Sequence record: MK931439.1 | DNA length: 43,130 nucleotides | DNA from: Escherichia phage Sciku | Reading direction: 5' to 3' (one strand) | Part shown: positions 598 to 27,350 of the stretch, in pieces | Layout: every line of letters starts with the position of its first letter | Position numbering within the stretch: the first letter of the stretch is position 1 | Notes under the pieces: model-generated | Seen by the model: the letters and a program-made list of their open reading frames with translations, nothing else | Database searches by the model: none | What the model was told of the DNA's origin: nothing | Program-made: the position numbers and the translations under genes

Positions 598-1844
598 GTA
601 TTCAGCTATCAGCCCCTCAGGCGCTGTTCCTGAACTGCGATAACAAATACAAGGCCTATGTCGGTGGCTTCGGCAGCGGCAAGACGTTTGTCGGCTGCCT
701 CGACCTGCTTACGTTCATGCTTAAGCACCCAGGTACGCGCCTTGGTTACTTCGGCCCGACCTACCCGGCTATCCGCGACATCTTCTACCCGACATTCGAG
801 GAAGCTGCTAACCTCCTGGGCCTTGATGTGCTGGTTAAATCCGGCGACAAAGAGGTCGTCGTTACGCGCGGTAAGACTGTAATTGGTACAGTAATCTGCC
901 GCTCGATGGATAACCCCGGCTCGATAGTCGGCTTCAAAATCGCTGCTGCGGTAGTCGATGAATTAGACGTACTGAGCCGTGAGAAAGCGGAGCTAGCGTG
1001 GAACAAAATCGTGGCCCGTATGCGTCTGGTTATCCCTGGCGTAATTAACCACATCTCCGTCACTACGACGCCGGAGGGGTTCAAGTTCGTCTACGCCAAG
1101 TTCAAAGAGAACCCGACACCTAGCTACTCTATGGTGCAGGCGTCAACTCATGAGAACGCCAGGTTCCTGCCGCCGGATTACATCAGCTCGCTGACCGAGA
1201 CCTACCCGGCGCAGTTGATTAACGCCTACCTTAATGGTGAGTTCGTTAACCTTACTTCTGGCAGTGTCTACTACGCCTACGACCGACGAAAGCAACGCAG
1301 TAAAGAGACAATCAAACCTGGTGACACCCTGTACATCGGGCAGGACTTCAACGTTACGAAAAACGCCAGCGCCGTGTATGTGCGACGCCCTAACGGGTGG
1401 CACGCGGTAGCAGAACTGAAAGGGCTGTTCGACACTCCTGACACCGTGCGCGTTATTACCGAGAAGTGGAAGTCGCAAGGCCACCGCATCGTCGTGTATC
1501 CGGATGCCAGCGGAAAGAACCGCAAGACCAACTCGGCGTCAATCTCTGACATAGCCTTACTCCAGCAGGCCGGGTTCGATGTGCGGGCTAAATCTGCCAA
1601 TCCGCCGGTTAAGGACCGTGTTTTAGCCGTGAATACCGCGCTGGAAAAAGGTAAGCTGTGGGTTAATGACCACTTATGCCCTGAGATAGCGAAGACTCTG
1701 GAGCAACAGGCGTACGACGACAACGGTGAGCCAGCTAAAGACGGCGTCATAGACCATATGGCGGATGCGCTTGGTTATCCTGTAGTTTACGAGATGCCGG
1801 TGGTTAAACCAGTAATCAACATCCCGGTGACTTTCGCACTTTAA
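594..1844 (+). CDS. terL: terminase large subunit
   Basis: N-terminal Walker A P-loop VGGFGSGKT; 416 aa; terS-terL-portal order. Confidence 0.85.
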   Translation: MSIQLSAPQALFLNCDNKYKAYVGGFGSGKTFVGCLDLLTFMLKHPGTRLGYFGPTYPAIRDIFYPTFEEAANLLGLDVLVKSGDKEVVVTRGKTVIGTVICRSMDNPGSIVGFKIAAAVVDELDVLSREKAELAWNKIVARMRLVIPGVINHISVTTTPEGFKFVYAKFKENPTPSYSMVQASTHENARFLPPDYISSLTETYPAQLINAYLNGEFVNLTSGSVYYAYDRRKQRSKETIKPGDTLYIGQDFNVTKNASAVYVRRPNGWHAVAELKGLFDTPDTVRVITEKWKSQGHRIVVYPDASGKNRKTNSASISDIALLQQAGFDVRAKSANPPVKDRVLAVNTALEKGKLWVNDHLCPEIAKTLEQQAYDDNGEPAKDGVIDHMADALGYPVVYEMPVVKPVINIPVTFAL

Positions 1845-1856
1845 GAGGATTATTCA

Positions 1857-3326
1857 ATGTTAACTATGAACGGTCAGAATCAGGGTGTTAAGACAAAACA
1901 CCGGGAATGGCTGCATCACTTTGATAAATGGCAGAAGGTGCGCCATGCGCTGGAAGGCGACCTTATCCGTTACCTGCGTAACGTCGGGAAGAACGAGCCT
2001 GACCCGACTTACGCCGCCCAACGCCAGGAGGAATACGAGAACGGCGCTATCTGCTACAACTTCACCAAGCGCACCCTGTCGGGTATGGTCGGCTCAGTTA
2101 TGAGAAAAGACCCTGAGCAGATTATTCCTCGTGAACTGGAGTACCTGTTACGCAATGCCGACGGTTCTGGTGTTGGCCTGTGGCAGCACGCGCAGGATAC
2201 GCTGATGGAGATTGACTCAGTAGGCCGTGGTGGTTTGCTGGTTGACGCCCCGGAAACAGCCGCAGCAACGGCAGCCGAACAGAACGCCGGATTATTAAAC
2301 CCGGTCATCGCATTCTACACCGCAGAGAACATCATCAACTGGCGACTCACTCGCGTAGGCTCGGTTAACCGCGTCACGATGGTAGTGCTGCGCGAGGTAT
2401 GGGAGTATTCAGAACCTGGTGCGGAGTTTGAAACCAAATTCGGCGAACAATACCGCGTTCTCGACTTGACTGATGGCCGCTACCGCCAGCGCATATACCG
2501 TTTCGATGCCGAAGGTGGTGCGCAGGGTGATGTAAAAGAAATCTTCCCGGAACTGGGCGAACAGTTGCGCGGAAAAATCCCATTCACGTTTATTGGTGCG
2601 AGTAATAACGACGCGACGGTTGATGACGCACCTTTGCTGCCGTTGGCAGAACTCAATATCGGACATTTCCGCAACAGCGCAGACAATGAGGAATCTAGCT
2701 TCGTCGTAGGTCAGCCTACCCTGTTTATCGCCCCAGGCGAGAATATGAGCATGGAGCAGTGGAAAGAGGCCAACCCTCACGGCGTGCGCATGGGTTCACG
2801 TTCAGGCCACAACATCGGCTACGGCGGCAACGCGTTTCTGGTTCAGGCCGGGGAGAATAACCTCGCCAAACAGAACATGCTGGACAAGGAGAATCAGGCC
2901 ATCCAGATCGGCGCGCAGCTTATCACGCCTACCCAGCAAATCACCGCTGAATCCGCCCGCCTGCAACGTGGTGCCGATACTTCCGTAATGGCGACTATCG
3001 CGCGTAACGTAAGCATGGCGTATACAGAGGCGCTGCGCTGGGTAGCTGCGATGCTGGGCCTGCGCGAAGGTGTGGAAATTGAGTTCAAGCTGAATATGGA
3101 GTTCTTCCTGCAACCGATGACTGCGCAAGACCGTGCGCAGTGGATGGCGGACATTAACGCCGGTTTACTTCCTGCAACTGCTTACTACGCCGCGTTGCGT
3201 AAGGCCGGGGTAACTGACTGGACTGACGAGGAGATTACAACGGCGATTGAGGACGCACCTGTGCCGTTAGGTGCTGTTACTCAGGTAGCTGGTGAGATTC
3301 CGCAGTCGGCGCAACAGCAGGAGTAA
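1857..3326 (+). CDS. portal protein
   Basis: 489 aa ORF immediately after terL; size and position typical of portal; no diagnostic motif checked. Confidence 0.7.
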   Translation: MLTMNGQNQGVKTKHREWLHHFDKWQKVRHALEGDLIRYLRNVGKNEPDPTYAAQRQEEYENGAICYNFTKRTLSGMVGSVMRKDPEQIIPRELEYLLRNADGSGVGLWQHAQDTLMEIDSVGRGGLLVDAPETAAATAAEQNAGLLNPVIAFYTAENIINWRLTRVGSVNRVTMVVLREVWEYSEPGAEFETKFGEQYRVLDLTDGRYRQRIYRFDAEGGAQGDVKEIFPELGEQLRGKIPFTFIGASNNDATVDDAPLLPLAELNIGHFRNSADNEESSFVVGQPTLFIAPGENMSMEQWKEANPHGVRMGSRSGHNIGYGGNAFLVQAGENNLAKQNMLDKENQAIQIGAQLITPTQQITAESARLQRGADTSVMATIARNVSMAYTEALRWVAAMLGLREGVEIEFKLNMEFFLQPMTAQDRAQWMADINAGLLPATAYYAALRKAGVTDWTDEEITTAIEDAPVPLGAVTQVAGEIPQSAQQQE

Positions 3327-6403: not shown

Positions 6404-7105
6404 ATGAATCGTTTTTTACGTTATCCGTTCCAGGAAGAAGCTGGGGCAGAAGATAAAGCCGGTGGCGGTAGCGCACCGAAAATGTTCACCGCTGAAGAAG
6501 TTCAGGCGCTGATTGAGAAAGAAGTTGCAGGGCTTAAGGCCAATCAGGAAGCATTACTGGCAGAGAAGAAAGAAGCCGCTCGTAAAGCAAGAGAGGCTGA
6601 AGAAGAACGGCAGCGCGCGCACCAGGAGGCGTTAAAGGCCGCTGGTAAGATGGACGAGTTCGAAAAGACGATTCGTAGCCAGTATGACCCGGTGTTAGCC
6701 GAGAAAGATGGCCGCATCTCCAAAATGGCAGAGCGCATCCTCGGTAGCGAACGTAAAGCGGTGTTAGGCTCTTTCGCGGGTGACTTCATTACCCCGGAAG
6801 CAGTAGACATTCTTGCTCCGTTCGTTAAGACTGAGTTTGATGGCGATGATGTGGTTACTAAGTTTGTTGGCGCAGATGGCAACGTAATCACAACTGACCC
6901 GGAACAGTTCCGCAAATACCTGCGTGAACACAAAGCGTTTTCGCATTTGATTAAAGCAAATGCAGCTTCCGGCGGCGGGGCTTCCGGCGGCAAAGGCGGC
7001 GGGGCCGCACCAGCGTTTAAAGACATGAACGAAGCGGAGCGTTTAGCTCTGTACAAATCGAACCCTGCCGAATTTGAACGGCAACTTAAAGCCCTGAGGA
7101 AATAA
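6404..7105 (+). CDS. putative scaffolding protein
   Basis: ATG at 6404; charged helical E/K/A-rich sequence; directly upstream of the capsid gene. Confidence 0.5.
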   Translation: MNRFLRYPFQEEAGAEDKAGGGSAPKMFTAEEVQALIEKEVAGLKANQEALLAEKKEAARKAREAEEERQRAHQEALKAAGKMDEFEKTIRSQYDPVLAEKDGRISKMAERILGSERKAVLGSFAGDFITPEAVDILAPFVKTEFDGDDVVTKFVGADGNVITTDPEQFRKYLREHKAFSHLIKANAASGGGASGGKGGGAAPAFKDMNEAERLALYKSNPAEFERQLKALRK

Positions 7106-10660: not shown

Positions 10661-11073
10661 TGGGCTACTTTGAAGACTTAACCAAAGCGTTCGACGTGCC
10701 GCTGGTAGCCTTCGGAAACACCAACGGCATCAAGATAGCGCTTGAGAACATCGACGCTCCGACGTCAACCGATACGCCATACCTTGCGAGTTACATGCTA
10801 CTGGCGGATACCGAGCAGGCCGACTTATTTTTCACAGAGCAACGCGCCGGTGTTTATCAGGTGGACATTAACTACGCATCGGTGAAAGGTAGCGCGCCAA
10901 TCAATAAAATGGCAGACTTACTTAACACGACATTCAAAGCAGGTAAGTCTTTTTCACGTAACGACATCTGCGCCGAAGTGCAATCGGTTAGCCTGGGGCC
11001 GCTGATTGTAGAAAATGGATGGGCTAAAAGACCATTGTCGATTAACTTTATTGCATTCACCAAGAGGCTGTGA
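10657..11073 (+). CDS. putative tail terminator / minor tail protein
   Basis: 138 aa ORF overlapping the upstream gene; positional call. Confidence 0.35.
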   Translation: MMGYFEDLTKAFDVPLVAFGNTNGIKIALENIDAPTSTDTPYLASYMLLADTEQADLFFTEQRAGVYQVDINYASVKGSAPINKMADLLNTTFKAGKSFSRNDICAEVQSVSLGPLIVENGWAKRPLSINFIAFTKRL

Positions 11074-11075
11074 AT

Positions 11076-12242
11076 ATGGCTACAACTCCTTTTAAGGGCG
11101 CGAATACCGCGCAATTCTATGTGGCGGAAACTACCCCGGGCGTGACACCGACTTCCCCGGTATGGTCGCCGTTGCGTAATACTGGCGGCGTTCCCGCGAT
11201 TACCCGCGACACTTTGACCTCCAACGAACTGGACGGCAGCCGCGAAACTACGTCAATTCGCACTGGTAACAAACAGGTTAGCGGTGAATACGCCATCGAG
11301 CTTAGCTCTAAAAGTCAGGATGACTGGCTGGCAGGTGCTTTAGGCTCTACGTGGCAATCAGGTGTATCCTTAACTGACCTGTCAATTACCGTCGCACCGG
11401 CAGGCAAGACGTTCACCCGTGCTGATGGTAGCTTTATTAACGACGGCGTTGAAGTAGGCGACCTGATTGCGTTTACCAACTTAACGGGAGATAACGCAAA
11501 ACCGTTCATCGTCACTGCGGTAGAGGCACTGGTAGTGACCGGTGCGGGCATCCAGCACACTCTCACCACAGAGACCGCTACTACTGCTGCTAAGACCGGC
11601 GACAAACTGGAAACCGGTAGCCAGTGTAAGACGTTCTCTATTCTCACATGGTACAAAGGCCAGTGCGGCGGGACTGACGCGTACACGCTTACCAAAGGTG
11701 TAGAAGTTTCTGGTTTCACTGTTGAGCAGGCCGTTAACGCGATGGTAACGGGCAGCTTCCCGTTCATCGGGCGCAGCCAGGAGATTCTCACCGAGCCGCC
11801 GTCTGGTTCTGATTTCTCCTCTGTTACGTTTGGTGATGAGCCGTTCTCCTCAGTTGACGTTTCTGTGTTCGATGGCTCTACGCCGTTGCGTTGTGATAGC
11901 TTTACCATCACCAACGACAACAGCGCGTCCGCGCAGTTCGAACTCGGCAACACTAACGTTGCGTTTGTGGAACGTAGCCGCGCGGCCAACACCTTCTCCA
12001 TCTCCGGTAAGCTGTACGACATGGTGATGATTCAGAAGTTTATCAACGAACAGCAGGTAGAGATTAACTCTATTCTGGCGGGGGTAAACGGGGCTATGTC
12101 TTTCAGTCTGAAACGTGCAGAACTCACGGCGGTTACGCCAGAGATTGGTGGTCCTGAGTCAATCACTCAGAGCATAGAAGGACAGTCCACAGGCAATCAA
12201 TATCAATCTTCTATTGTAATACAGCGCATTAGCTACGCGTAA
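11076..12242 (+). CDS. putative major tail protein
   Basis: 388 aa from ATG 11076; Thr/Ser/Gly-rich; upstream of chaperone and tape-measure genes; followed by a strong terminator. Confidence 0.5.
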   Translation: MATTPFKGANTAQFYVAETTPGVTPTSPVWSPLRNTGGVPAITRDTLTSNELDGSRETTSIRTGNKQVSGEYAIELSSKSQDDWLAGALGSTWQSGVSLTDLSITVAPAGKTFTRADGSFINDGVEVGDLIAFTNLTGDNAKPFIVTAVEALVVTGAGIQHTLTTETATTAAKTGDKLETGSQCKTFSILTWYKGQCGGTDAYTLTKGVEVSGFTVEQAVNAMVTGSFPFIGRSQEILTEPPSGSDFSSVTFGDEPFSSVDVSVFDGSTPLRCDSFTITNDNSASAQFELGNTNVAFVERSRAANTFSISGKLYDMVMIQKFINEQQVEINSILAGVNGAMSFSLKRAELTAVTPEIGGPESITQSIEGQSTGNQYQSSIVIQRISYA

Positions 12243-12271
12243 GGAAAAGGCCCCGAAAGGGGCCTTTTCCT
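12243..12271. terminator. bidirectional rho-independent terminator
   Basis: AAAAGGCCCC-GAAA-GGGGCCTTTT perfect hairpin with A-run upstream and T-run downstream. Confidence 0.7.
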
Positions 12272-12429
12272 TATTCCTTCAATTGCATTGGGTAGAAGTT
12301 AACGAGTTCTCCTTTATCCCGAAGCCGTGAATATTCATCTAACGCATCTTGCTGGCTACTCACTGCATAAATATCGTTCCACTCGTCCCATTCTTTGTCG
12401 TATACGCGGATTACATATATTGTTTTCAT
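12271..12429 (-). CDS. small hypothetical protein (moron island)
   Basis: 52 aa ORF MKTIYVIRVYDKEWDEW...; starts 8 nt after the upstream stop. Confidence 0.3.
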   Translation of the reverse strand: MKTIYVIRVYDKEWDEWNDIYAVSSQQDALDEYSRLRDKGELVNFYPMQLKE

Positions 12430-12436
12430 AATATTT

Positions 12437-12667
12437 TCACACATCAATGTTACTCCTGTACTCCCGTAACTTCTCCAGGCTTTCGATTGCCTCAGCTAAG
12501 TCTGTCCAGGTGTCCTTGTGACCACGTAAACCCATACACAATAGCTTCTTCAATGCGTGCTGTAACGCCGGGTCGCGTATGTCGAAGGCGCGTAGCACGT
12601 CGTAAACGTCTACAGTCATAGTGCTGCCGTAGGTGTTTGTCATTGTGCGGTTGTATTTATTTGTCAC
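12437..12667 (-). CDS. hypothetical protein (moron island)
   Basis: 76 aa minus-strand ORF; no motif recognised. Confidence 0.4.
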   Translation of the reverse strand: MTNKYNRTMTNTYGSTMTVDVYDVLRAFDIRDPALQHALKKLLCMGLRGHKDTWTDLAEAIESLEKLREYRSNIDV

Positions 12668-12857
12668 TGTTAACTCTCTTAAATCTGGCTATGCCTGACT
12701 CGTTAATGTTGCCTATTTCAAAGAAGCTGCGATATTTAGGCGAATACATTCTTACATCGCCATTCTCTAGGGTGACTCCTTCGTACACCGCACCTACTTC
12801 GAACCCATTTTTCTCTGCATACGGACTTACCTCGGTGCATTCATACATGTCTTTCAT
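12657..12857 (-). CDS. hypothetical protein (moron island)
   Basis: 66 aa minus-strand ORF overlapping both neighbours. Confidence 0.4.
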   Translation of the reverse strand: MKDMYECTEVSPYAEKNGFEVGAVYEGVTLENGDVRMYSPKYRSFFEIGNINESGIARFKRVNSDK

Positions 12858-13984
12858 CCCAGCATCTCCGGTGAAATAGTTAAACGTGCGACCTCGCCGT
12901 ATTCGGCGCTATAAGTAATTACATTTGCACTGCGGCCTGACATCCACCCGCCGCGGGAGGCGTAGGCATCTTTAGCCGCCAGGGTGCGGTGTTGTTCAAC
13001 AATCATGTTACGGCTTTCTACAATCTTTTGGTGGTGCAGGTGACCTACGTGGGCGTAGCTGTAAACACTCTCGCCGAACGCTTTGCGGAACTTGGCAATC
13101 ATAACCGGTTCGATAATGTCGAATCGCGCCTTATGCCCGTGATGAAAGAACAGCGTCGTTTTGCCGTGTTGCACCATCTTGTAAACATCCGGCGACGTGT
13201 CGACAATCACTCGGCTGTCGTTTGAGTATAAAGTCGCGAACATTTCCGCCAGCCATACGGACCCTACAGGATCGTGATTTCCTTGCACGATAAGCAAGCG
13301 AACGGTTTTATGTTTAACCAGCGCCATATCTACAACACGGCGGACCATACGAATCATGTAGCGGACAAGTTTCTGGTAGCGAGTGTCCGCGTCCAACACA
13401 TGACGTGACTCAGGTGTAACGGCGTCCAGACTATCGAAGTGTACGAAGTCTCCTAGCAGATTAATAACCCCTGTTCCTGCATCCGGTGCTTTCTGAAACG
13501 CCGCATCGAACCATCGAGAGAACAGGTCTTCCGCAATCTTCATATCCCAGTCGTCGCCGCTCTCGTCGGCCCATGCCAGCATACCAAGATGAAAATCAGA
13601 CACGGTGTAAAGATTGAGTAGCTTGTCGTCGCGTTTGGCTCGAGTCGCTTTAACAGGAGCAACGGGCGTAATCTCTGACTTCATGCCTTCGATCACGGCT
13701 TTCATCAATTCAACCTGACGTTCGGCATCGGTGTCGGTCTTAACCCATTGCAACTTAGTGTTGCCGAACTCATCCACAAGTGACGACGTTCCTTTAATCT
13801 TGTAGCCGTCCGGCACAAGGTGGCTAACGTCGCGCCCGTGACCTACGCCTTTCTTCGCCAGCTTCGCTTTACGGATACGGATAACGCGGTCTGAGATTCC
13901 ATACTTACGTGCGATATCAATAATTTTTGTTCCGGCGTTCAATTCTTCCCGTAACTGTTCGTCGGTTATTTTCTTATGAGCCAT
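12854..13984 (-). CDS. HTH domain - calcineurin-like metallophosphoesterase fusion protein
   Basis: N-terminal HTH-like IIDIARKYGISDRVIRIRKAK; then metallophosphoesterase signature blocks SDFHLG, GDFVHFD, GNHD, HHGH, GHLHH; GAGGAA RBS. Confidence 0.7.
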   Translation of the reverse strand: MAHKKITDEQLREELNAGTKIIDIARKYGISDRVIRIRKAKLAKKGVGHGRDVSHLVPDGYKIKGTSSLVDEFGNTKLQWVKTDTDAERQVELMKAVIEGMKSEITPVAPVKATRAKRDDKLLNLYTVSDFHLGMLAWADESGDDWDMKIAEDLFSRWFDAAFQKAPDAGTGVINLLGDFVHFDSLDAVTPESRHVLDADTRYQKLVRYMIRMVRRVVDMALVKHKTVRLLIVQGNHDPVGSVWLAEMFATLYSNDSRVIVDTSPDVYKMVQHGKTTLFFHHGHKARFDIIEPVMIAKFRKAFGESVYSYAHVGHLHHQKIVESRNMIVEQHRTLAAKDAYASRGGWMSGRSANVITYSAEYGEVARLTISPEMLG

Positions 13985-14023
13985 GCTTTACTTCCTCGTG
14001 TTTAGGATTTGTCCTATACTAGC

Positions 14024-14215
14024 TCACTTCTCTTTGACGTTCGAGTTGCACGCCCAGATTAAAATAAATACCCACGGCAGCAGAACCCAACCGAGAAACA
14101 GATTAGCCATGAATATCGCTAATTTAGCTTTATGGTTGCGCATATGCGCCACGAGAAATGGGATAAAATAAACTAAAACGATAATGATTAAGAAGAACAT
14201 AGTAATACCTGTCAT
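14024..14215 (-). CDS. small two-TM membrane protein, putative superinfection-immunity (Imm-like) protein
   Basis: 63 aa from ATG 14215 with AGGAGC RBS; two hydrophobic helices; LFLGWVLLPWVFILIWA resembles the Imm-type motif as I recall it. Confidence 0.45.
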   Translation of the reverse strand: MTGITMFFLIIIVLVYFIPFLVAHMRNHKAKLAIFMANLFLGWVLLPWVFILIWACNSNVKEK

Positions 14216-14255
14216 GGTGTAGCTCCTGTTCGAGTTAACATTGTTGGTGTAAGTG

Positions 14256-14285
14256 AATAGTATCCTATTATGTTGGGGTGCGCAA
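14256..14285 (-). promoter_or_regulatory. sigma70-like promoter with AATAG-N4-CTATT operator (type B)
   Basis: minus strand: -35 TTGCGC (14285-14280), 17-nt spacer, -10 TACTAT (14262-14257); 26-bp block here is an exact inverted copy of 37811-37836. Confidence 0.5.
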
Positions 14286-14393
14286 GTAATGTGATAGAAT
14301 AATTTTGCGCCTAGTGTCGCACACGAAAAGCGGGTGGTTCCCGTCTGGCGCATTTACCATTAACCTGTAACCTCTTAACCAAAGGATTAAAGA

Positions 14394-14810
14394 ATGAAAC
14401 TTTCTGATTTTTATTACGAAGCTGAGGCAGAAAAAGGCGCCCGTATGCCGATACCACTGAAAGACGGCACCGATTCAGGGGAGTGGCTGAACGTTGTTTC
14501 ACCGGAGGCAGACGTTGCTGTTAAAGCTATGAGGGCGTTTACACTTGCGTACCGCGCGGCATTAGGTAAATTGAAACCGCTTCGCGATAAATGCGAGGAA
14601 CTGAAAGATTTCTCGGAATACAACATCAAGATGGAAGACGCCGCAACGGACCTTAACCGCCAGTTAGCGCTTGAACTGGTTAACGGTTGGAGTCTCGACG
14701 ATGAATTTAATAAAGAGAACCTGAATACTCTTTTCTCACAATATAAACGACTCGCTGAACACGTTGTTGTTTTCCACAATGAACAGCTTCACCAATTGCA
14801 GGAAAAGTAG
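14394..14810 (+). CDS. putative tail assembly chaperone
   Basis: 138 aa acidic ORF directly upstream of the tape measure; followed by an ORF in the -1 frame. Confidence 0.5.
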   Translation: MKLSDFYYEAEAEKGARMPIPLKDGTDSGEWLNVVSPEADVAVKAMRAFTLAYRAALGKLKPLRDKCEELKDFSEYNIKMEDAATDLNRQLALELVNGWSLDDEFNKENLNTLFSQYKRLAEHVVVFHNEQLHQLQEK

Positions 14811-14815
14811 ACGCG

Positions 14816-15175
14816 TTGCTCCAGTTTGCCCGTTGGAACTTCATAACCCGCCACAAACGGCGGGAGTTTGACAGTATCGCCGACGGGCATAAAGCCGCGC
14901 TAATTGCTATGGGGGTTATGCAAGACGCGCCGGAAGCAACGCAGGACACAGGGCCGGAATGCCCCCCTGAGCTATTAACCACCTTCGAGAAGTACAGGGA
15001 AATCAAATTCACCCGCCGAGTGGACGATGATGGCATCAAGATGTACCCGCGCGAACAGTTAAGATGGTCGGATTTAGTGGCATACAGCACCGTTTCAGGC
15101 CAGAATATAGGCATGTTCGAATCTGACATCATCATGAGCTTAGACGCTATTTTCGAGGGTAGAAACGATGGCTGA
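14816..15175 (+). CDS. putative -1 frameshift extension of the tail assembly chaperone
   Basis: -1 frame relative to 14394-14810 and open from 14783; overlaps the tape-measure start. Confidence 0.35.
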   Translation: MLQFARWNFITRHKRREFDSIADGHKAALIAMGVMQDAPEATQDTGPECPPELLTTFEKYREIKFTRRVDDDGIKMYPREQLRWSDLVAYSTVSGQNIGMFESDIIMSLDAIFEGRNDG

Positions 15176-17504
15176 TGTAGCTAGTTTAGTTGTAAAAGTA
15201 TCAGAGCAAGGCGCGAAAGCTACATCAGACCGTCTTGATAACCTTTCCAAGTCTGCAAAGGTAGCCGGAGCTGCGGTAGCGGGCCTCGCTTCCATCGTCG
15301 CCGCTACCGCGTACAAGGCCGCACAGGAACTGGTAGACTCCCAACGGCAACTGGACAAGATGTCCGCCAGCCTGAAAACACTAACCGGAAGCACGCAGGG
15401 TGCAAGACAGGCGTTAAGCATCCTGCAAGACTTCGCGCGCGACACCCCGTATGGTCTTGAACAGGCGGTAGAGGGATTCCGTAAACTGGTGGCTCTCGGC
15501 CTTACACCGTCAGAAGAAGCGTTGCGCTCCTATGGCAACACTGCCGCTGCTATGGGTAAAGACCTTAATCAGATGATTGAGGCCGTTGCGGACGCCAGTA
15601 CATTTGAATTTGAGCGCCTTAAAGAATTCGGCATCAAGGCCAAGCAAAACAAAGACGATGTTGAATTTACATTCCAGGGCACCACTACGGTAGTTAAGAA
15701 GAGCGCTGCCGACATCGAGCAATACCTGCTCAACATTGGTAACGTAAACTTCGCGGGGGCTATGGCGGACCAGGCCAACACACTTAACGGCGCCATCGCC
15801 AGTGCCAGCGACTCATGGTCGCAGTTAAAAATGACACTGGCTACCAGCCTTGATGTTGGTGCTCTTGCGGAGCCTATCCGGTACATCGATGATTTAATCC
15901 AGGAACTTAACGCACAGGTAGCATCCGGCGAACTCGCTGCTGAGATGCGTATGTGGGGCGACATCGCGTCAGAAGTGGGAAGCGCGATAGAGATGTCGTT
16001 CGACGCGGCATTTGGTTTCGTAGGCGACGCAATAAACGGGCTGAATGAACTTTGGGACTTTAGTAGTAAAAGTATCACCGATAGCGGTGAACAAACGGCG
16101 ACAACCATCGCGGAATCAGCCGCCGATGCGCTCGATTTCATTGCGGAAGAATTTACCGCGATGGAGCGATTCTTTGAAGATATGGTTAAAGGGGCACAGG
16201 ACGCTGGCCGGTTGGTGAAAGCTGCCTTCACACCAGGGGAATCTGTAGACGTAGCAAAAAACATTAACTTCCAGTTAGGGATGGCACTGGATACTCAGCG
16301 CGATGTTGCGGACCTGACCCGTAAAAGTTTCCGCGAACAGGTGGAGGCTCAGCAAAATATTGTCGCGCTTAAACGCGCGGCATATGACATCGACAAAGAA
16401 GCCGCTAAGGGAGAAGGTCTTAGTAAATTTAAGGTAACTGGTACTGGTGGCGGATCCGAAGATGATAGCGCAGGTGCAAAAGCCGCTAAGAAAGCCGCAG
16501 ATGCGTTCGAGCGCCAGAAGAAAGCCGCTGAGGATTTCTACTACCAGTCGATTCATCTCAATGATGACGTATTCCAGAAAATAGAAGCCAACCAGGAACA
16601 GCAGCTAACCAAGCTACAGGAGTTTTACGGCAATCAGCTTCTTAGCGACCAGCAATACGAGAACGCTAAAACTCAGATTATGCTGGAGGCGGACACTGCA
16701 CGTCAGGAAGAACTCGCCAAGCGAGAGAAAGAACGGCAGGAAAAGAACCAGAAAGGCGAGGACTTCATGGCTCAGATTATGGGTCAGAATGCCGCAGAGC
16801 TTGAGCTTTTGGAGATTCAGGAACAACAAAAACTTGACGTTGCAGACCGATATCGCGAACAGAACCTTATTAACGAGGAGCAGTACCAGGCTGCGGTTAA
16901 TGCTATAAACGACCAGTATGCTTTGAAACGTGCCAACGCTACCGGTAACGCTTTCGGAATGATGGCGGATAACATGAAGGCCTCACTAGGGGAGGCGTCT
17001 GCCGCATACAAAGCGTTTGCCATTGCGCAGGCCACCATCGCCACATACACATCCGCCATCGAGGCTTATAAATCTGCATCGGCTATCCCTATTGTTGGAT
17101 GGGTGCTCGGGCCTGTAGCAGCAGCTACAGCGGTAGCGGCAGGTCTCGCTAACATCAGCAAGATTCGTTCGGCCCGTGAGCAGGGCGGTAACTTAGCCGC
17201 AGGTCAGTTATCTACTATCGCGGAACGTAACAAGCCAGAAGTTATTATGCCTGCAGGGGCGTCACGCGTACGTACCGCGGAACAGATGCGCCAGATTATG
17301 GGCGAGAACGGCAACAAGTCAGGCGGTGACAGCGTGACAATCGTCAACAACACCACCGGACGAGTTGATTCCGCCGTTACAGAGCGTGACGACGAAGGGC
17401 GGTTACGTGTTATCATCAGTGAAACAGTATCGGCGGCGTTACAAGACAGCAACAGTGCAATCTCCAAGTCCCGCCGGGCTACACGAAACCAGCCAGGGTA
17501 TTAA
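15168..17504 (+). CDS. tail tape measure protein
   Basis: 778 aa, Ala/Gln/Glu-rich helical sequence with a hydrophobic segment near the C-terminus; follows the chaperone pair. Confidence 0.8.
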   Translation: MADVASLVVKVSEQGAKATSDRLDNLSKSAKVAGAAVAGLASIVAATAYKAAQELVDSQRQLDKMSASLKTLTGSTQGARQALSILQDFARDTPYGLEQAVEGFRKLVALGLTPSEEALRSYGNTAAAMGKDLNQMIEAVADASTFEFERLKEFGIKAKQNKDDVEFTFQGTTTVVKKSAADIEQYLLNIGNVNFAGAMADQANTLNGAIASASDSWSQLKMTLATSLDVGALAEPIRYIDDLIQELNAQVASGELAAEMRMWGDIASEVGSAIEMSFDAAFGFVGDAINGLNELWDFSSKSITDSGEQTATTIAESAADALDFIAEEFTAMERFFEDMVKGAQDAGRLVKAAFTPGESVDVAKNINFQLGMALDTQRDVADLTRKSFREQVEAQQNIVALKRAAYDIDKEAAKGEGLSKFKVTGTGGGSEDDSAGAKAAKKAADAFERQKKAAEDFYYQSIHLNDDVFQKIEANQEQQLTKLQEFYGNQLLSDQQYENAKTQIMLEADTARQEELAKREKERQEKNQKGEDFMAQIMGQNAAELELLEIQEQQKLDVADRYREQNLINEEQYQAAVNAINDQYALKRANATGNAFGMMADNMKASLGEASAAYKAFAIAQATIATYTSAIEAYKSASAIPIVGWVLGPVAAATAVAAGLANISKIRSAREQGGNLAAGQLSTIAERNKPEVIMPAGASRVRTAEQMRQIMGENGNKSGGDSVTIVNNTTGRVDSAVTERDDEGRLRVIISETVSAALQDSNSAISKSRRATRNQPGY

Positions 17505-24750: not shown

Positions 24751-24888
24751 CTACTCTTCGGATAACTTCTCCAGTACAAACGCCAGTTGCGCATTAGCGG
24801 CGTCTCTCTGTTGCCGTAGTCGTAGAACCTCTTCTTCGAGTTCCTCGATACGTTTTTGCAATGCCGGAATTGGGGCTATGATGTTCAT
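24751..24888 (-). CDS. small coiled-coil hypothetical protein
   Basis: 45 aa ORF whose ATG overlaps the helicase stop (ATGA); heptad-like IEELEEEVLRLRQQ. Confidence 0.3.
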   Translation of the reverse strand: MNIIAPIPALQKRIEELEEEVLRLRQQRDAANAQLAFVLEKLSEE

Positions 24889-27350
24889 TTCTTACCTCGT
24901 CTCTTCATGTAATTAAGCAATTCTTCCTGTACAGATTTCTTCTCGTCGGTGCGCGCGGCAACAACCTCATCCAGCGTGTCTTTAGCGACGATGTGATAGA
25001 GGAACACCGGGCGCTCGTGTCCAGCCTGTTTCTGACGAACAGGGCCTATGCGCTCGACAACCTGCAAATAGTGCTCGAGGTTCCATCCCTGACTTATAAA
25101 CGCCAGATGATGCCCTCCATCCTGTAAATTCAAACCATGGCCGGCTGACGCGGGATGAACACATAAGATTTCGATTTCACCACGGTTCCACGCTTCCATC
25201 TGCTTATTACCCTTAGCTCCTTTGGCAAACGCCTTAGCCTGCGGGAATCGCTTAAGTATGCGCTCCAGTTCGTGTTTAAACTGATAGGCCACCAGTAACG
25301 GCGCGCCCTGCAACTCCTCAACAATGGACTCCAGTGCGTCCAGTTTCGTGTCATGCACTTTCTCCCAGTCTTTCGTTGCTTCGCCATCTGGCCCTGATAC
25401 ATACACGGCACCGGACGCAATCTGGAGACACTTTGATGTCTTCGCTGCCGCGTTAGCGGCTTCAACTTCCCCGCTCTCGAGTTCCGCAAATAACTTCTCC
25501 TCCATATCGATGTACGCCTGACGCGCTTTCTTCGGCAGGTCTATTTCAACAGGAACGATAATCGGCGCTTCGCAACCGAACCACTCTGCAGCATCGATAG
25601 TGAGACTGATATCCTTCATCTTCTGATGAATCTCGGTATCCGCGCCCGGGCGAGCGTGATACTCACGCGCCATAGCCGATTTGCCTTTCTGTATCGAATT
25701 AAACCAGCGGTCGGTAAACGCCGTATACGAAGAACCAAGTCGCTCGCCTGCGTCTATAAACCAGTTCTGCCCCCACAAGTCTTTGAGGCCGTTTGGTGAC
25801 GGCGTACCGGTCAGGTTGATAAAACGCTTAACCTTACCAAACGCCACTTTACTAAGCGCCTTTGCTCGCTTGCTGCCACCAGAACGGCTGCGGAACGATT
25901 TAAGCTTCGTGCTCTCGTCGGCAACGATAACTGTGAAAGGCCAGTCGTCTTTGCCGTAGTAGTCAATCAGCCACTCGATAACTTCGTAGTTAGTGCACAC
26001 CACGTTAGCGTCGGACTCAAGCGCCGTGATGCGGCGCTTCTCCGAACCGGTCGCATCTACTACACGCAGGCACGGGAAACCCCAACGTGCCTGTTCCGCG
26101 GGCCACGTGCCAGACGCAACACGCAACGGGGCGAGGATTAACACGCGGTCGTCGTCATTAAGTTGCCCATTACGGAACAGGCGGTTGAGAACCCACAACG
26201 TTGAGCTTGTATTGTGCGTGACAGTGAAGTCCCCCAATAAAAACCTACTGTCACCGTCGATAGTGAAGCCGAAATAATCATCTACGCCGACCGGGGTTAT
26301 GGATTCTATACCAACGTTAAGCACGTTCTTATTAATATTACGCTTCGGTAAATTCTGGTGGCGTCCTCGCACGAAAGGTACCTCAGAAAAATCGCCAGAT
26401 ACCGACACACGGAAGTAGTCACCCCAAACATCAGTGTTTGCGCAACGCTTACGAGTTTTCTTCTTGTAAGCAGCAAAACCAAGAGAACGGCATAGATAGC
26501 AAAAATCATCAGCAAGTCGCTCGCTTACCGAAATCCAGTCAAAACCCGCTTTAGACAAATCGCAGTAACCATCACTATCCAGAAGCCCCGCCAGCAATTC
26601 TAACCGCTGTCGCCGGTCGCCGCATTTGTAACTATGCGGTATATGCTTATTGTTCAGGACACCCGCCGATTTCAGCGCGTGCGTAAACCCGTGCTTCTTA
26701 TGACCTGTGTTGCCGTAAGATATACTCCATGTAAGTCCTTCTTTTCGTATTTGCATCCCATTACGTGCTGCGTACGACTCAAGATAAGCCCTTATTTCCT
26801 TTTCGTTCTCTCCTGATGTTATGGCCCCCGACGACGAAGTACCGTCACCCAGCCATAACCCCATAAGGTACGGAGGCAATAAAGCCTCGTCCTGCTCTTT
26901 CCTTGTAAAATCGACAGGTACCCGCCAACCCTTAAGATACCCATTAGGTCCGGTTACATATTTCGGCAACTTAAGCCAGTCGCGGACGCTTATGTCGAAA
27001 ACGGTATTATCTGGCCATGAACCTTTTGCAATCCCTGTAGTAGTTCGCAGGGATAATATATGGCTTTCGTTGACCGTATACGACTCTCCTTTTCGCGGTT
27101 TAACCTCGTACATCATCTCCCGGCCTCTACCGAGAGACAGTACATTTCTAGGCGTTGAATCCGGCCCCATAAGCACGTCACCGACGATGACGTCTTCTAC
27201 TTTCTTGGTCGTACCGTCAAACATAATAACTTCCGTCCCGCGTTTCAGGCACTTGCCGCTGCCCATACTAGCCCAGATATTGCAACGTGGGTGCTGTAAC
27301 ATAAACGACGTCATTATTTTCTGGTATTCCCTGCGCCTAAATTTACTCAT
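24885..27350 (-). CDS. SNF2-family helicase precursor containing an intein
   Basis: motif I ASMGSGK|T interrupted after Lys33 by a 347-aa insert; C-terminal helicase region with GHGLNLQ; mature protein predicted 474 aa. Confidence 0.8.
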   Translation of the reverse strand: MSKFRRREYQKIMTSFMLQHPRCNIWASMGSGKCLKRGTEVIMFDGTTKKVEDVIVGDVLMGPDSTPRNVLSLGRGREMMYEVKPRKGESYTVNESHILSLRTTTGIAKGSWPDNTVFDISVRDWLKLPKYVTGPNGYLKGWRVPVDFTRKEQDEALLPPYLMGLWLGDGTSSSGAITSGENEKEIRAYLESYAARNGMQIRKEGLTWSISYGNTGHKKHGFTHALKSAGVLNNKHIPHSYKCGDRRQRLELLAGLLDSDGYCDLSKAGFDWISVSERLADDFCYLCRSLGFAAYKKKTRKRCANTDVWGDYFRVSVSGDFSEVPFVRGRHQNLPKRNINKNVLNVGIESITPVGVDDYFGFTIDGDSRFLLGDFTVTHNTSSTLWVLNRLFRNGQLNDDDRVLILAPLRVASGTWPAEQARWGFPCLRVVDATGSEKRRITALESDANVVCTNYEVIEWLIDYYGKDDWPFTVIVADESTKLKSFRSRSGGSKRAKALSKVAFGKVKRFINLTGTPSPNGLKDLWGQNWFIDAGERLGSSYTAFTDRWFNSIQKGKSAMAREYHARPGADTEIHQKMKDISLTIDAAEWFGCEAPIIVPVEIDLPKKARQAYIDMEEKLFAELESGEVEAANAAAKTSKCLQIASGAVYVSGPDGEATKDWEKVHDTKLDALESIVEELQGAPLLVAYQFKHELERILKRFPQAKAFAKGAKGNKQMEAWNRGEIEILCVHPASAGHGLNLQDGGHHLAFISQGWNLEHYLQVVERIGPVRQKQAGHERPVFLYHIVAKDTLDEVVAARTDEKKSVQEELLNYMKRRGKK
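26211..27251 (-). mobile_element. intein with LAGLIDADG homing-endonuclease domain
   Basis: begins with Cys (TGC at 27251-27249), ends His-Asn (26216-26211) before Thr +1; two LAGLIDADG motifs YLMGLWLGDGT and LLAGLLDSDGY; in frame, 1041 nt. Confidence 0.8.

Follow-up and report, generated by a model that had tools for sequence, protein, structure and literature searches.

A T4 Imm-family protein encoded beside the tail chaperone and tape-measure genes of Escherichia phage Sciku and its likely role in superinfection exclusion

In the 43,130-nucleotide stretch of Escherichia phage Sciku DNA analysed here (MK931439.1; hereafter the window), the minus strand at positions 14024-14215 encodes a 63-aa protein which, judged by its sequence, belongs over its full length to the Imm superinfection-immunity family and shows every feature of membership that could be tested. 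On balance we favour the view that this T4 Imm-family protein resides in the inner membrane and that its function is most likely superinfection exclusion, plausibly exerted via the tape measure protein by analogy with T4. The protein would be made in the infected cell and placed in the cytoplasmic membrane, where it would stop the tail of a later-arriving phage from opening its DNA channel. It would most plausibly do so by binding the membrane-inserting part of the incoming phage's tape measure protein, and the second genome would thereby be kept outside the cytoplasm.

Direct reading of the minus strand at 14024-14215 gave the imm-like product MTGITMFFLIIIVLVYFIPFLVAHMRNHKAKLAIFMANLFLGWVLLPWVFILIWACNSNVKEK, with an N-terminal transmembrane helix followed by the conserved core of PF14373 and PHROG 1039. 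An earlier note, made from the sequence alone, had described a 63-aa protein with two hydrophobic stretches at this place, and both the open reading frame and the hydropathy profile bore this out: the hydrophobic stretches span residues ~4-23 and ~32-55, and a basic loop made of H24, R26, H28, K29 and K31 lies between them. The segment singled out in that note, NLFLGWVLLPWVFILIWA, corresponds to residues 38-55 of the 63-aa protein. A ribosome-binding site, AGGAG, is located at 14223-14227 on the minus strand, 7 nt before the ATG, and is annotated in MK931440.1 too. The longest mechanical open reading frame at this locus is 109 aa, with its ATG at 14353 (14024-14353); in relatives the N-terminal extension of this maximal version is broken or shifted out of frame, and the longer reading was therefore rejected.

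The imm frame is short (63 aa) and sits in a stretch of lower G+C content (~0.41-0.44 versus ~0.50), as might be said of a chance open frame or of a decaying, functionless remnant. The probability of such an origin is nevertheless vanishingly small, given that the frame and its start are retained widely: the 63-aa start, or an equivalent start giving 59-63 aa, was kept in 36 out of 36 related loci drawn from two genera. The conserved core furthermore carries 13-27 synonymous against 2-20 non-synonymous differences (dN/dS ~0.02-0.15), a sign of strong purifying selection, the profile matches described below are significant, and the protein was found by tblastn in 370 phage records, mostly from Salmonella Jerseyvirus and Escherichia Kagunavirus. 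The imm open reading frame is a real gene under purifying selection, and start conservation together with selection rules out a spurious frame.

Variation within the protein was concentrated at one end. Across the 36 related loci (L003-L038), the first ~15 residues (14171-14215, minus strand), which form the start of the first helix, occurred in three unrelated versions, MTGITMFFLIII, MSSLPVSLILFALL and MSVFIGIIAF, fully exchanged between clades, while the remainder of the protein past this point was nearly invariant.

Family membership was examined by profile comparison with the Imm family. The protein matched PF14373 (Imm_superinfect) with 51.8 bits, well above the gathering score of 27.9 (E = 7.7e-14), its residues 15-56 covering model positions 1-42 of 42. 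T4 Imm itself, taken from NC_000866, scored 58.2 bits on the same model. The protein also matched PHROG 1039, "immunity to superinfection", with E = 2.5e-23, a group that takes in T4 Imm as well (PMC9409062), and BLASTP aligned it with T4 Imm over 54 aa ungapped at 28% identity (E = 9e-12). The likeness to the T4 Imm core proposed in the earlier note was borne out by these comparisons. In alignment A1, residues Y16, P19, R26, W43, W48 and W54 were invariant. The word-index homologue search returned just 10 close relatives, and a five-sequence profile reached T4-like and bacterial members. In the resulting 48-sequence alignment A2, which spans T4-like, Guernseyvirinae and bacterial members, P19 was invariant and Y16, W43, W48 and W54 were at least 90% conserved. 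According to the BLASTP alignment, T4 R33 and W50 correspond to R26 and W43 here (an offset of 7), and both are conserved.

An AlphaFold2 model built from the 48-sequence alignment had a mean pLDDT of 90.8 and comprised four helices, at residues 3-16, 18-25, 31-41 and 45-57. When this model was compared with predicted viral structures using Foldseek, four of the five best matches were proteins with a superinfection immunity annotation, originating from Pseudomonas, Aeromonas, Serratia and Mycobacterium phages, and one was unnamed; all five had a probability of 1.00 and query-normalised TM-scores of 0.69-0.79. A family-profile sequence search of the PDB yielded no solved structure of the Imm family, returning only chance matches to photosystems (E > 0.4). 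Scans of imm and its neighbour genes with NCBIfam and PADLOC gave zero matches, and DUF3302 (PF11742), considered for the imm region, was discarded since its 27.3 bits fell below the cut-off of 32. From the hydropathy and the basic loop between the helices, the protein is predicted to sit in the cytoplasmic membrane.

The identity of this gene has been anticipated in public records. Over the 4.2 kb compared, 11000-15200, the window shares 99.8% identity with Escherichia phage Shashou (MK931440.1; Guernseyvirinae, Kagunavirus); matches to this region around imm occur in 406 phage records. In the Shashou record the orthologue, CPT_Shashou_024, is labelled "superinfection immunity protein" and described as similar to T4 Imm; many of the 370 phage records matched by tblastn bear a superinfection-immunity label. 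Two papers also state the resemblance to T4 Imm explicitly, one announcing the genome of the sister phage Schulenburg and the other dealing with Jerseyvirus SeF1 (PMC9409062). The Imm-like identity was hence already available in GenBank and two papers, and the finding is correct but ordinary, confirming the existing database annotation of a near-identical genome. In the literature searched, no experimental test of an Imm homologue from Guernseyvirinae came to light.

The genomic setting of imm was then considered. The gene heads a five-gene leftward unit (12271-14215) flanked by the tail tube gene on one side and by the rightward chaperone and tape-measure genes on the other. The second gene of the unit (12854-13984, minus strand) starts 39 nt past imm with its own ribosome-binding site, and profile matches assign to its 376-aa product an N-terminal helix-turn-helix domain and a calcineurin-like metallophosphoesterase domain (PHROG 704). 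This phosphoesterase gene comes after imm in all 36 related loci. Its public names are inconsistent (phosphatase, DNA repair exonuclease, DNA polymerase II small subunit), and it exists among relatives as two divergent alleles, with ~85-98% versus ~54-59% identity to the copy in the window. The distal, variable part of the unit consists of three small open reading frames of 66, 76 and 58 aa (12271-12857, minus strand), which in relatives are present, absent or replaced, with kinase or HNH genes in some annotated genomes. For the region corresponding to ~24885-27266 of the window (minus strand, placed via locus L001), the Shashou annotation records an intein-containing helicase, with a homing-endonuclease intein, and free-standing HNH genes. 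One relative, the SE2-like contig L036, carries inside the leftward unit (6473-6575, plus strand) a full-length match to ColE1-type RNAI (RF00106, 96.3 bits), which could be either vector contamination of the assembly or a real plasmid-derived insert.

A perfect bidirectional intrinsic terminator, GGAAAAGGCCCC-GAAA-GGGGCCTTTTCC (12243-12270, both strands), closes the leftward unit and terminates the tail-tube transcript as well; it is annotated on both strands in MK931440.1. It is the sole strong terminator, five genes downstream of the imm start, and none was found directly after imm. Tail-tube transcripts should stop at 12243-12270, which bears on where the chaperone, tape-measure and downstream tail genes may have their promoter. 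On its upstream side imm is separated from the divergent chaperone gene by a 178-bp spacer, and no gene on the same strand precedes it.

Within this spacer we identified a candidate sigma-70 promoter on the minus strand (14257-14285) by upstream alignment, composed of TTGCGC (14285-14280), a 17-nt spacer and TACTAT (14262-14257). At the equivalent position Jerseyvirus has TTGCAT, 17 nt and TATTAT. Conservation was assessed by aligning 35 distinct upstream regions, and the sigma-70-like promoter, conserved in two genera, lies 29-63 nt upstream of the imm start codon, with a predicted transcript start near 14250 on the minus strand; the number of promoter-like sites in the imm region is not above that in shuffled sequence. 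An alternative, overlapping site, ATCACA, 17 nt, CATAAT (14267-14295, minus strand), emerged from consensus and alignment; its -10 element is a perfect TATAAT in many Kagunavirus relatives and poor in Jerseyvirus. The AT-rich hexamer at 14257-14263 can be read as a -10 element both ways, as TACTAT on the minus strand and as TAGTAT on the plus strand. A plus-strand promoter-like site comprising TTAACA (14235-14240), 17 nt and TAGTAT (14235-14263 overall) was rejected since its -35 element is deleted in one Kagunavirus clade. The minus-strand reading is favoured because the minus-strand -35 element alone is conserved in all clades, and host RNA polymerase would be expected to transcribe the unit from this conserved candidate site.

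GenBank places a further open reading frame of 30 aa, CPT_Shashou_025 (14268-14360, minus strand), upstream of imm, and this was considered as the real first gene of the unit. It was rejected because neither its start nor its frame is conserved. The DNA of this region shows conservation at all codon positions alike, and an RNA motif that it overlaps on the opposite strand probably explains this better than a coding role would; CPT_Shashou_025 is probably not a gene. Given that the chaperone gene is divergent, that the 30-aa frame is not conserved as coding sequence and that a promoter-like site lies upstream, imm very probably stands first in the leftward unit. The promoter-proximal position proposed in the earlier note is consequently probably right, with no same-strand gene upstream and a conserved sigma-70-like site in place.

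The RNA motif in question is an int-alpA element (RF02996) at 14304-14368 on the plus strand, directly upstream of the chaperone gene. The 65-nt match scored 32.5 bits against a gathering score of 35.8 (E = 2e-5 for the searched stretch), and in relatives L009 and L014 the element reached the gathering score with 36.6 bits. The structured part of the match is a 47-nt paired core at 14307-14353. Across 12 distinct sequences, 94.6% of cells in the structure were paired and three pairs had changed on both sides, compared with 34.5-57.1% pairing and almost no two-sided changes in controls with a slid register; most of these compensatory changes coincide with the division into two genera and so represent few independent events. 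Folding of the whole spacer on both strands was no better than for shuffled sequence (z ~ -0.4), and no further copies of the hairpin motif beyond chance were present in the window. The motif is absent from the Shashou annotation and does not overlap the predicted imm transcript.

The earlier note had termed the locus a moron island, a description that suits it poorly. In the sense of Juhala and Hendrix, a moron is an independent unit with its own promoter and terminator, a base composition unlike that of the genes around it, a sporadic, add-on distribution among related genomes and prophage expression (PMC3594210). Here, imm and the 376-aa gene are fixed at one position in 36 of 36 related loci and only the distal small open reading frames vary; imm has a promoter-like site but is without a terminator of its own, and these phages, from a virulent subfamily, are glycan-dependent siphoviruses. 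The G+C content over imm (0.41-0.44) is below that of the flanks (~0.50-0.55) and of the rest of the unit (~0.45-0.51), as is expected of a gene rich in hydrophobic codons, which tends to be T-rich. A conserved embedded leftward unit describes the locus better.

Early expression had likewise been proposed, and the one line of evidence that would point to it is the promoter consensus. The sole relevant transcriptome, an RNA-seq study of Kagunavirus vB_Eco_K1B4, places the peak of the Imm homologue and of DNA polymerase at 110 min or later (>= 110 min), with structural genes peaking before the Imm homologue. These data show that the imm homologue and its tail-gene neighbours follow different transcription schedules; as sampling over 120 min takes in several infection cycles, the timing does not discriminate between early and late expression.

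The proposed mode of action of the Imm-like protein draws on recent work on T4. T4 Imm was reported to bind gp29, the T4 tape measure protein, at its helical-bundle domain, and the R33A and W50A substitutions in Imm to lower exclusion, in a preprint that presents a low-resolution complex (bioRxiv 10.64898/2026.03.06.709160). The tape measure protein of the present phage is a 778-aa protein (15168-17504, plus strand) containing a hydrophobic, predicted transmembrane segment at residues ~637-665 (17076-17162, plus strand), which would be the kind of target expected for Imm. No significant sequence similarity was detected between T4 gp29 and the 778-aa protein, and the T4 target is therefore not transferable by homology. 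When the two tape measure types found in Kagunavirus were compared, the C-terminal part (~500-778), including the hydrophobic segment, was 67-100% identical, whereas the middle (~200-450) was 15-30% identical; an N-terminal part (residues ~90-150) was conserved as well. In most cases the imm clade goes with the type of chaperone and tape measure, the exceptions being two recombinants (L008 and L014), so that the association may simply reflect linkage. These two observations, and the recurrence of Imm-family genes at the chaperone and tape-measure junction described below, would fit the tape measure protein as the target, if only indirectly. The tape measure proteins are themselves mosaic, as seen in the window and in loci L008, L014, L015 and L027. 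That of Jerseyvirus is ~81% identical to the one in the window, versus ~52% in many Kagunaviruses (the type of L015 and L019), and L008 appears to be a recombinant that bears a window-like tape measure C-terminus on a type-2 body.

Two other readings of the gene deserve consideration alongside exclusion through the tape measure protein. The protein might protect the envelope against secondary adsorption, or set the timing of lysis, rather than exclude a second genome. T4 imm mutants do show such defects, Imm has been said to resemble a holin (PMC6832632), and in the K1B4 RNA-seq paper the homologue is placed among the genes that peak late and is termed lysis-related. In T4, however, these effects accompany exclusion and do not replace it, the K1B4 statement on lysis cites the T4 exclusion paper alone and gives no lysis data, and according to the Shashou annotation the phage has a separate and complete lysis set, with holin, antiholin and endolysin at ~41.1-42.2 kb and spanins at ~5.8-6.3 kb. 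We regard an envelope or lysis role as quite improbable.

Slightly less remote, though in our opinion still unlikely, is that the Imm fold acts here on another membrane target, such as a host transporter or channel used by unrelated phages or colicins, or serves in host takeover. Members of PF14373 also occur on large bacterial contigs (0.5-0.6 Mb) and fused to SHOCT domains, so that the family name need not fix the function; some phage members (L042 and T4) lie among early or replication genes and not among tail genes, and no sequence relationship links the tape measure proteins of T4 and of this phage. On this reading "superinfection immunity" would be a label taken from T4, with the activity itself lacking. 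Against this, R26 and W43 preserve the residues that T4 Imm requires for full exclusion, Imm-family genes are linked to chaperone and tape-measure genes in three siphovirus contexts, and conservation across the subfamily extends to the Imm core and to the tape measure protein's C-terminal part but not to that protein's middle. Superinfection exclusion, plausibly via the tape measure protein, thus remains the reading that we prefer.

The recurrence of imm at the junction of chaperone and tape-measure genes was followed across seven Imm-family genomic contexts. In all 36 related loci imm lies directly past the spacer that separates it from the divergent chaperone and tape-measure genes. On a metagenomic siphovirus contig, L040, an Imm-family gene (2218-2427, plus strand) is found on the opposite strand, with two small genes in the chaperone position on one side and, on the other, a gene for a 713-residue tape measure protein which is unrelated to that of the window. 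On a second such contig, L045, the Imm gene (1161-1364, plus strand) comes after a chaperone gene and is followed by a second small gene and then by a gene for an 826-residue tape measure protein. The L045 context is not fully independent, as its chaperone is a distant homologue of the one in the window (E = 7e-15) and its tape measure protein shows weak similarity in a single stretch that immediately precedes the hydrophobic segment (E = 7e-5). Other Imm-family genes are placed elsewhere, as in T4, in L042 (among early and replication genes), and in L043 and L044. Linkage to this junction as a general pattern is therefore suggestive.

It is possible, and we put it forward tentatively as something short of an expectation, that the Imm family is a general countermeasure against tape measure proteins in siphoviruses and T-even myoviruses, and that siphoviruses keep the gene beside the chaperone and tape-measure genes. 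If this were true, an exclusion protein would be passed on along with the tape measure protein that it recognises, the Imm core (the loop with R26 and W43) would contact the tape measure protein's conserved C-terminal part, the one that inserts into the membrane, and Imm's N-terminal helix, which is freely exchanged, would tune something else. The wider question is whether contact between Imm and the tape measure protein, as reported for T4, is a general rule, and small siphoviruses would offer a simple test system, with a 63-residue protein, a tape measure protein that has one clear hydrophobic segment, and phages in which imm and tape-measure types have recombined naturally. Kagunavirus isolates of the BASEL collection grow on E. 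coli K-12 with restored O-antigen. The matter has a practical side too: Kagunavirus and Jerseyvirus phages are popular candidates for therapy, and a working exclusion protein would cause co-infecting relatives to interfere with each other in cocktails, a point raised in PMC9409062.

Comparison with known systems places the protein closest to its orthologues at the equivalent position in other Guernseyvirinae, namely Shashou QEA09422.1, Schulenburg QEG06814 and SeF1 Gp_027, together with those of Salmonella phages SETP3 and SE2, which are labelled 'immunity to superinfection'. Identity is 100% with Ec1-ASingh and 98.4% with Shashou, from which the protein differs by one residue (I11 here, V11 in Shashou), and ~71-75% with the second Kagunavirus clade and Jerseyvirus. 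T4 Imm (P08986, NP_049660) is the founding member of PF14373. Both proteins match the family model over its full length, both are small with hydrophobic, predicted membrane-spanning helices, and in both an N-terminal transmembrane helix precedes a core with the residues Y, P, R, W, W and W. T4 Imm is the longer of the two, with 83 aa versus 63 aa; the present protein has a shorter N-terminus and lacks the ~20-residue hydrophilic C-terminal tail. T4 imm furthermore lies among early replication genes, whereas imm here is beside the tail chaperone and tape-measure genes, and T4 gp29 and the tape measure protein of the imm-bearing siphovirus are unrelated in sequence.

Comparable in position and in proposed mode of action is gp15 of phage HK97, a small inner-membrane protein whose gene lies between the chaperone and tape-measure genes (PMC3594210). 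HK97 gp15 blocks genome entry while leaving the receptor untouched, and its effect depends on the tail region of the incoming phage (PMC3594210). It belongs to the unrelated YebO family, in contrast to the Imm family here, and it is a stand-alone moron of a temperate phage's prophage, whereas imm heads a multi-gene unit of a virulent phage. A last comparison is the analogy drawn in the T4 preprint with small inner-membrane proteins that block the membrane insertion of an incoming helical pore-forming domain (bioRxiv 10.64898/2026.03.06.709160); these analogues share no sequence relationship with the imm protein.
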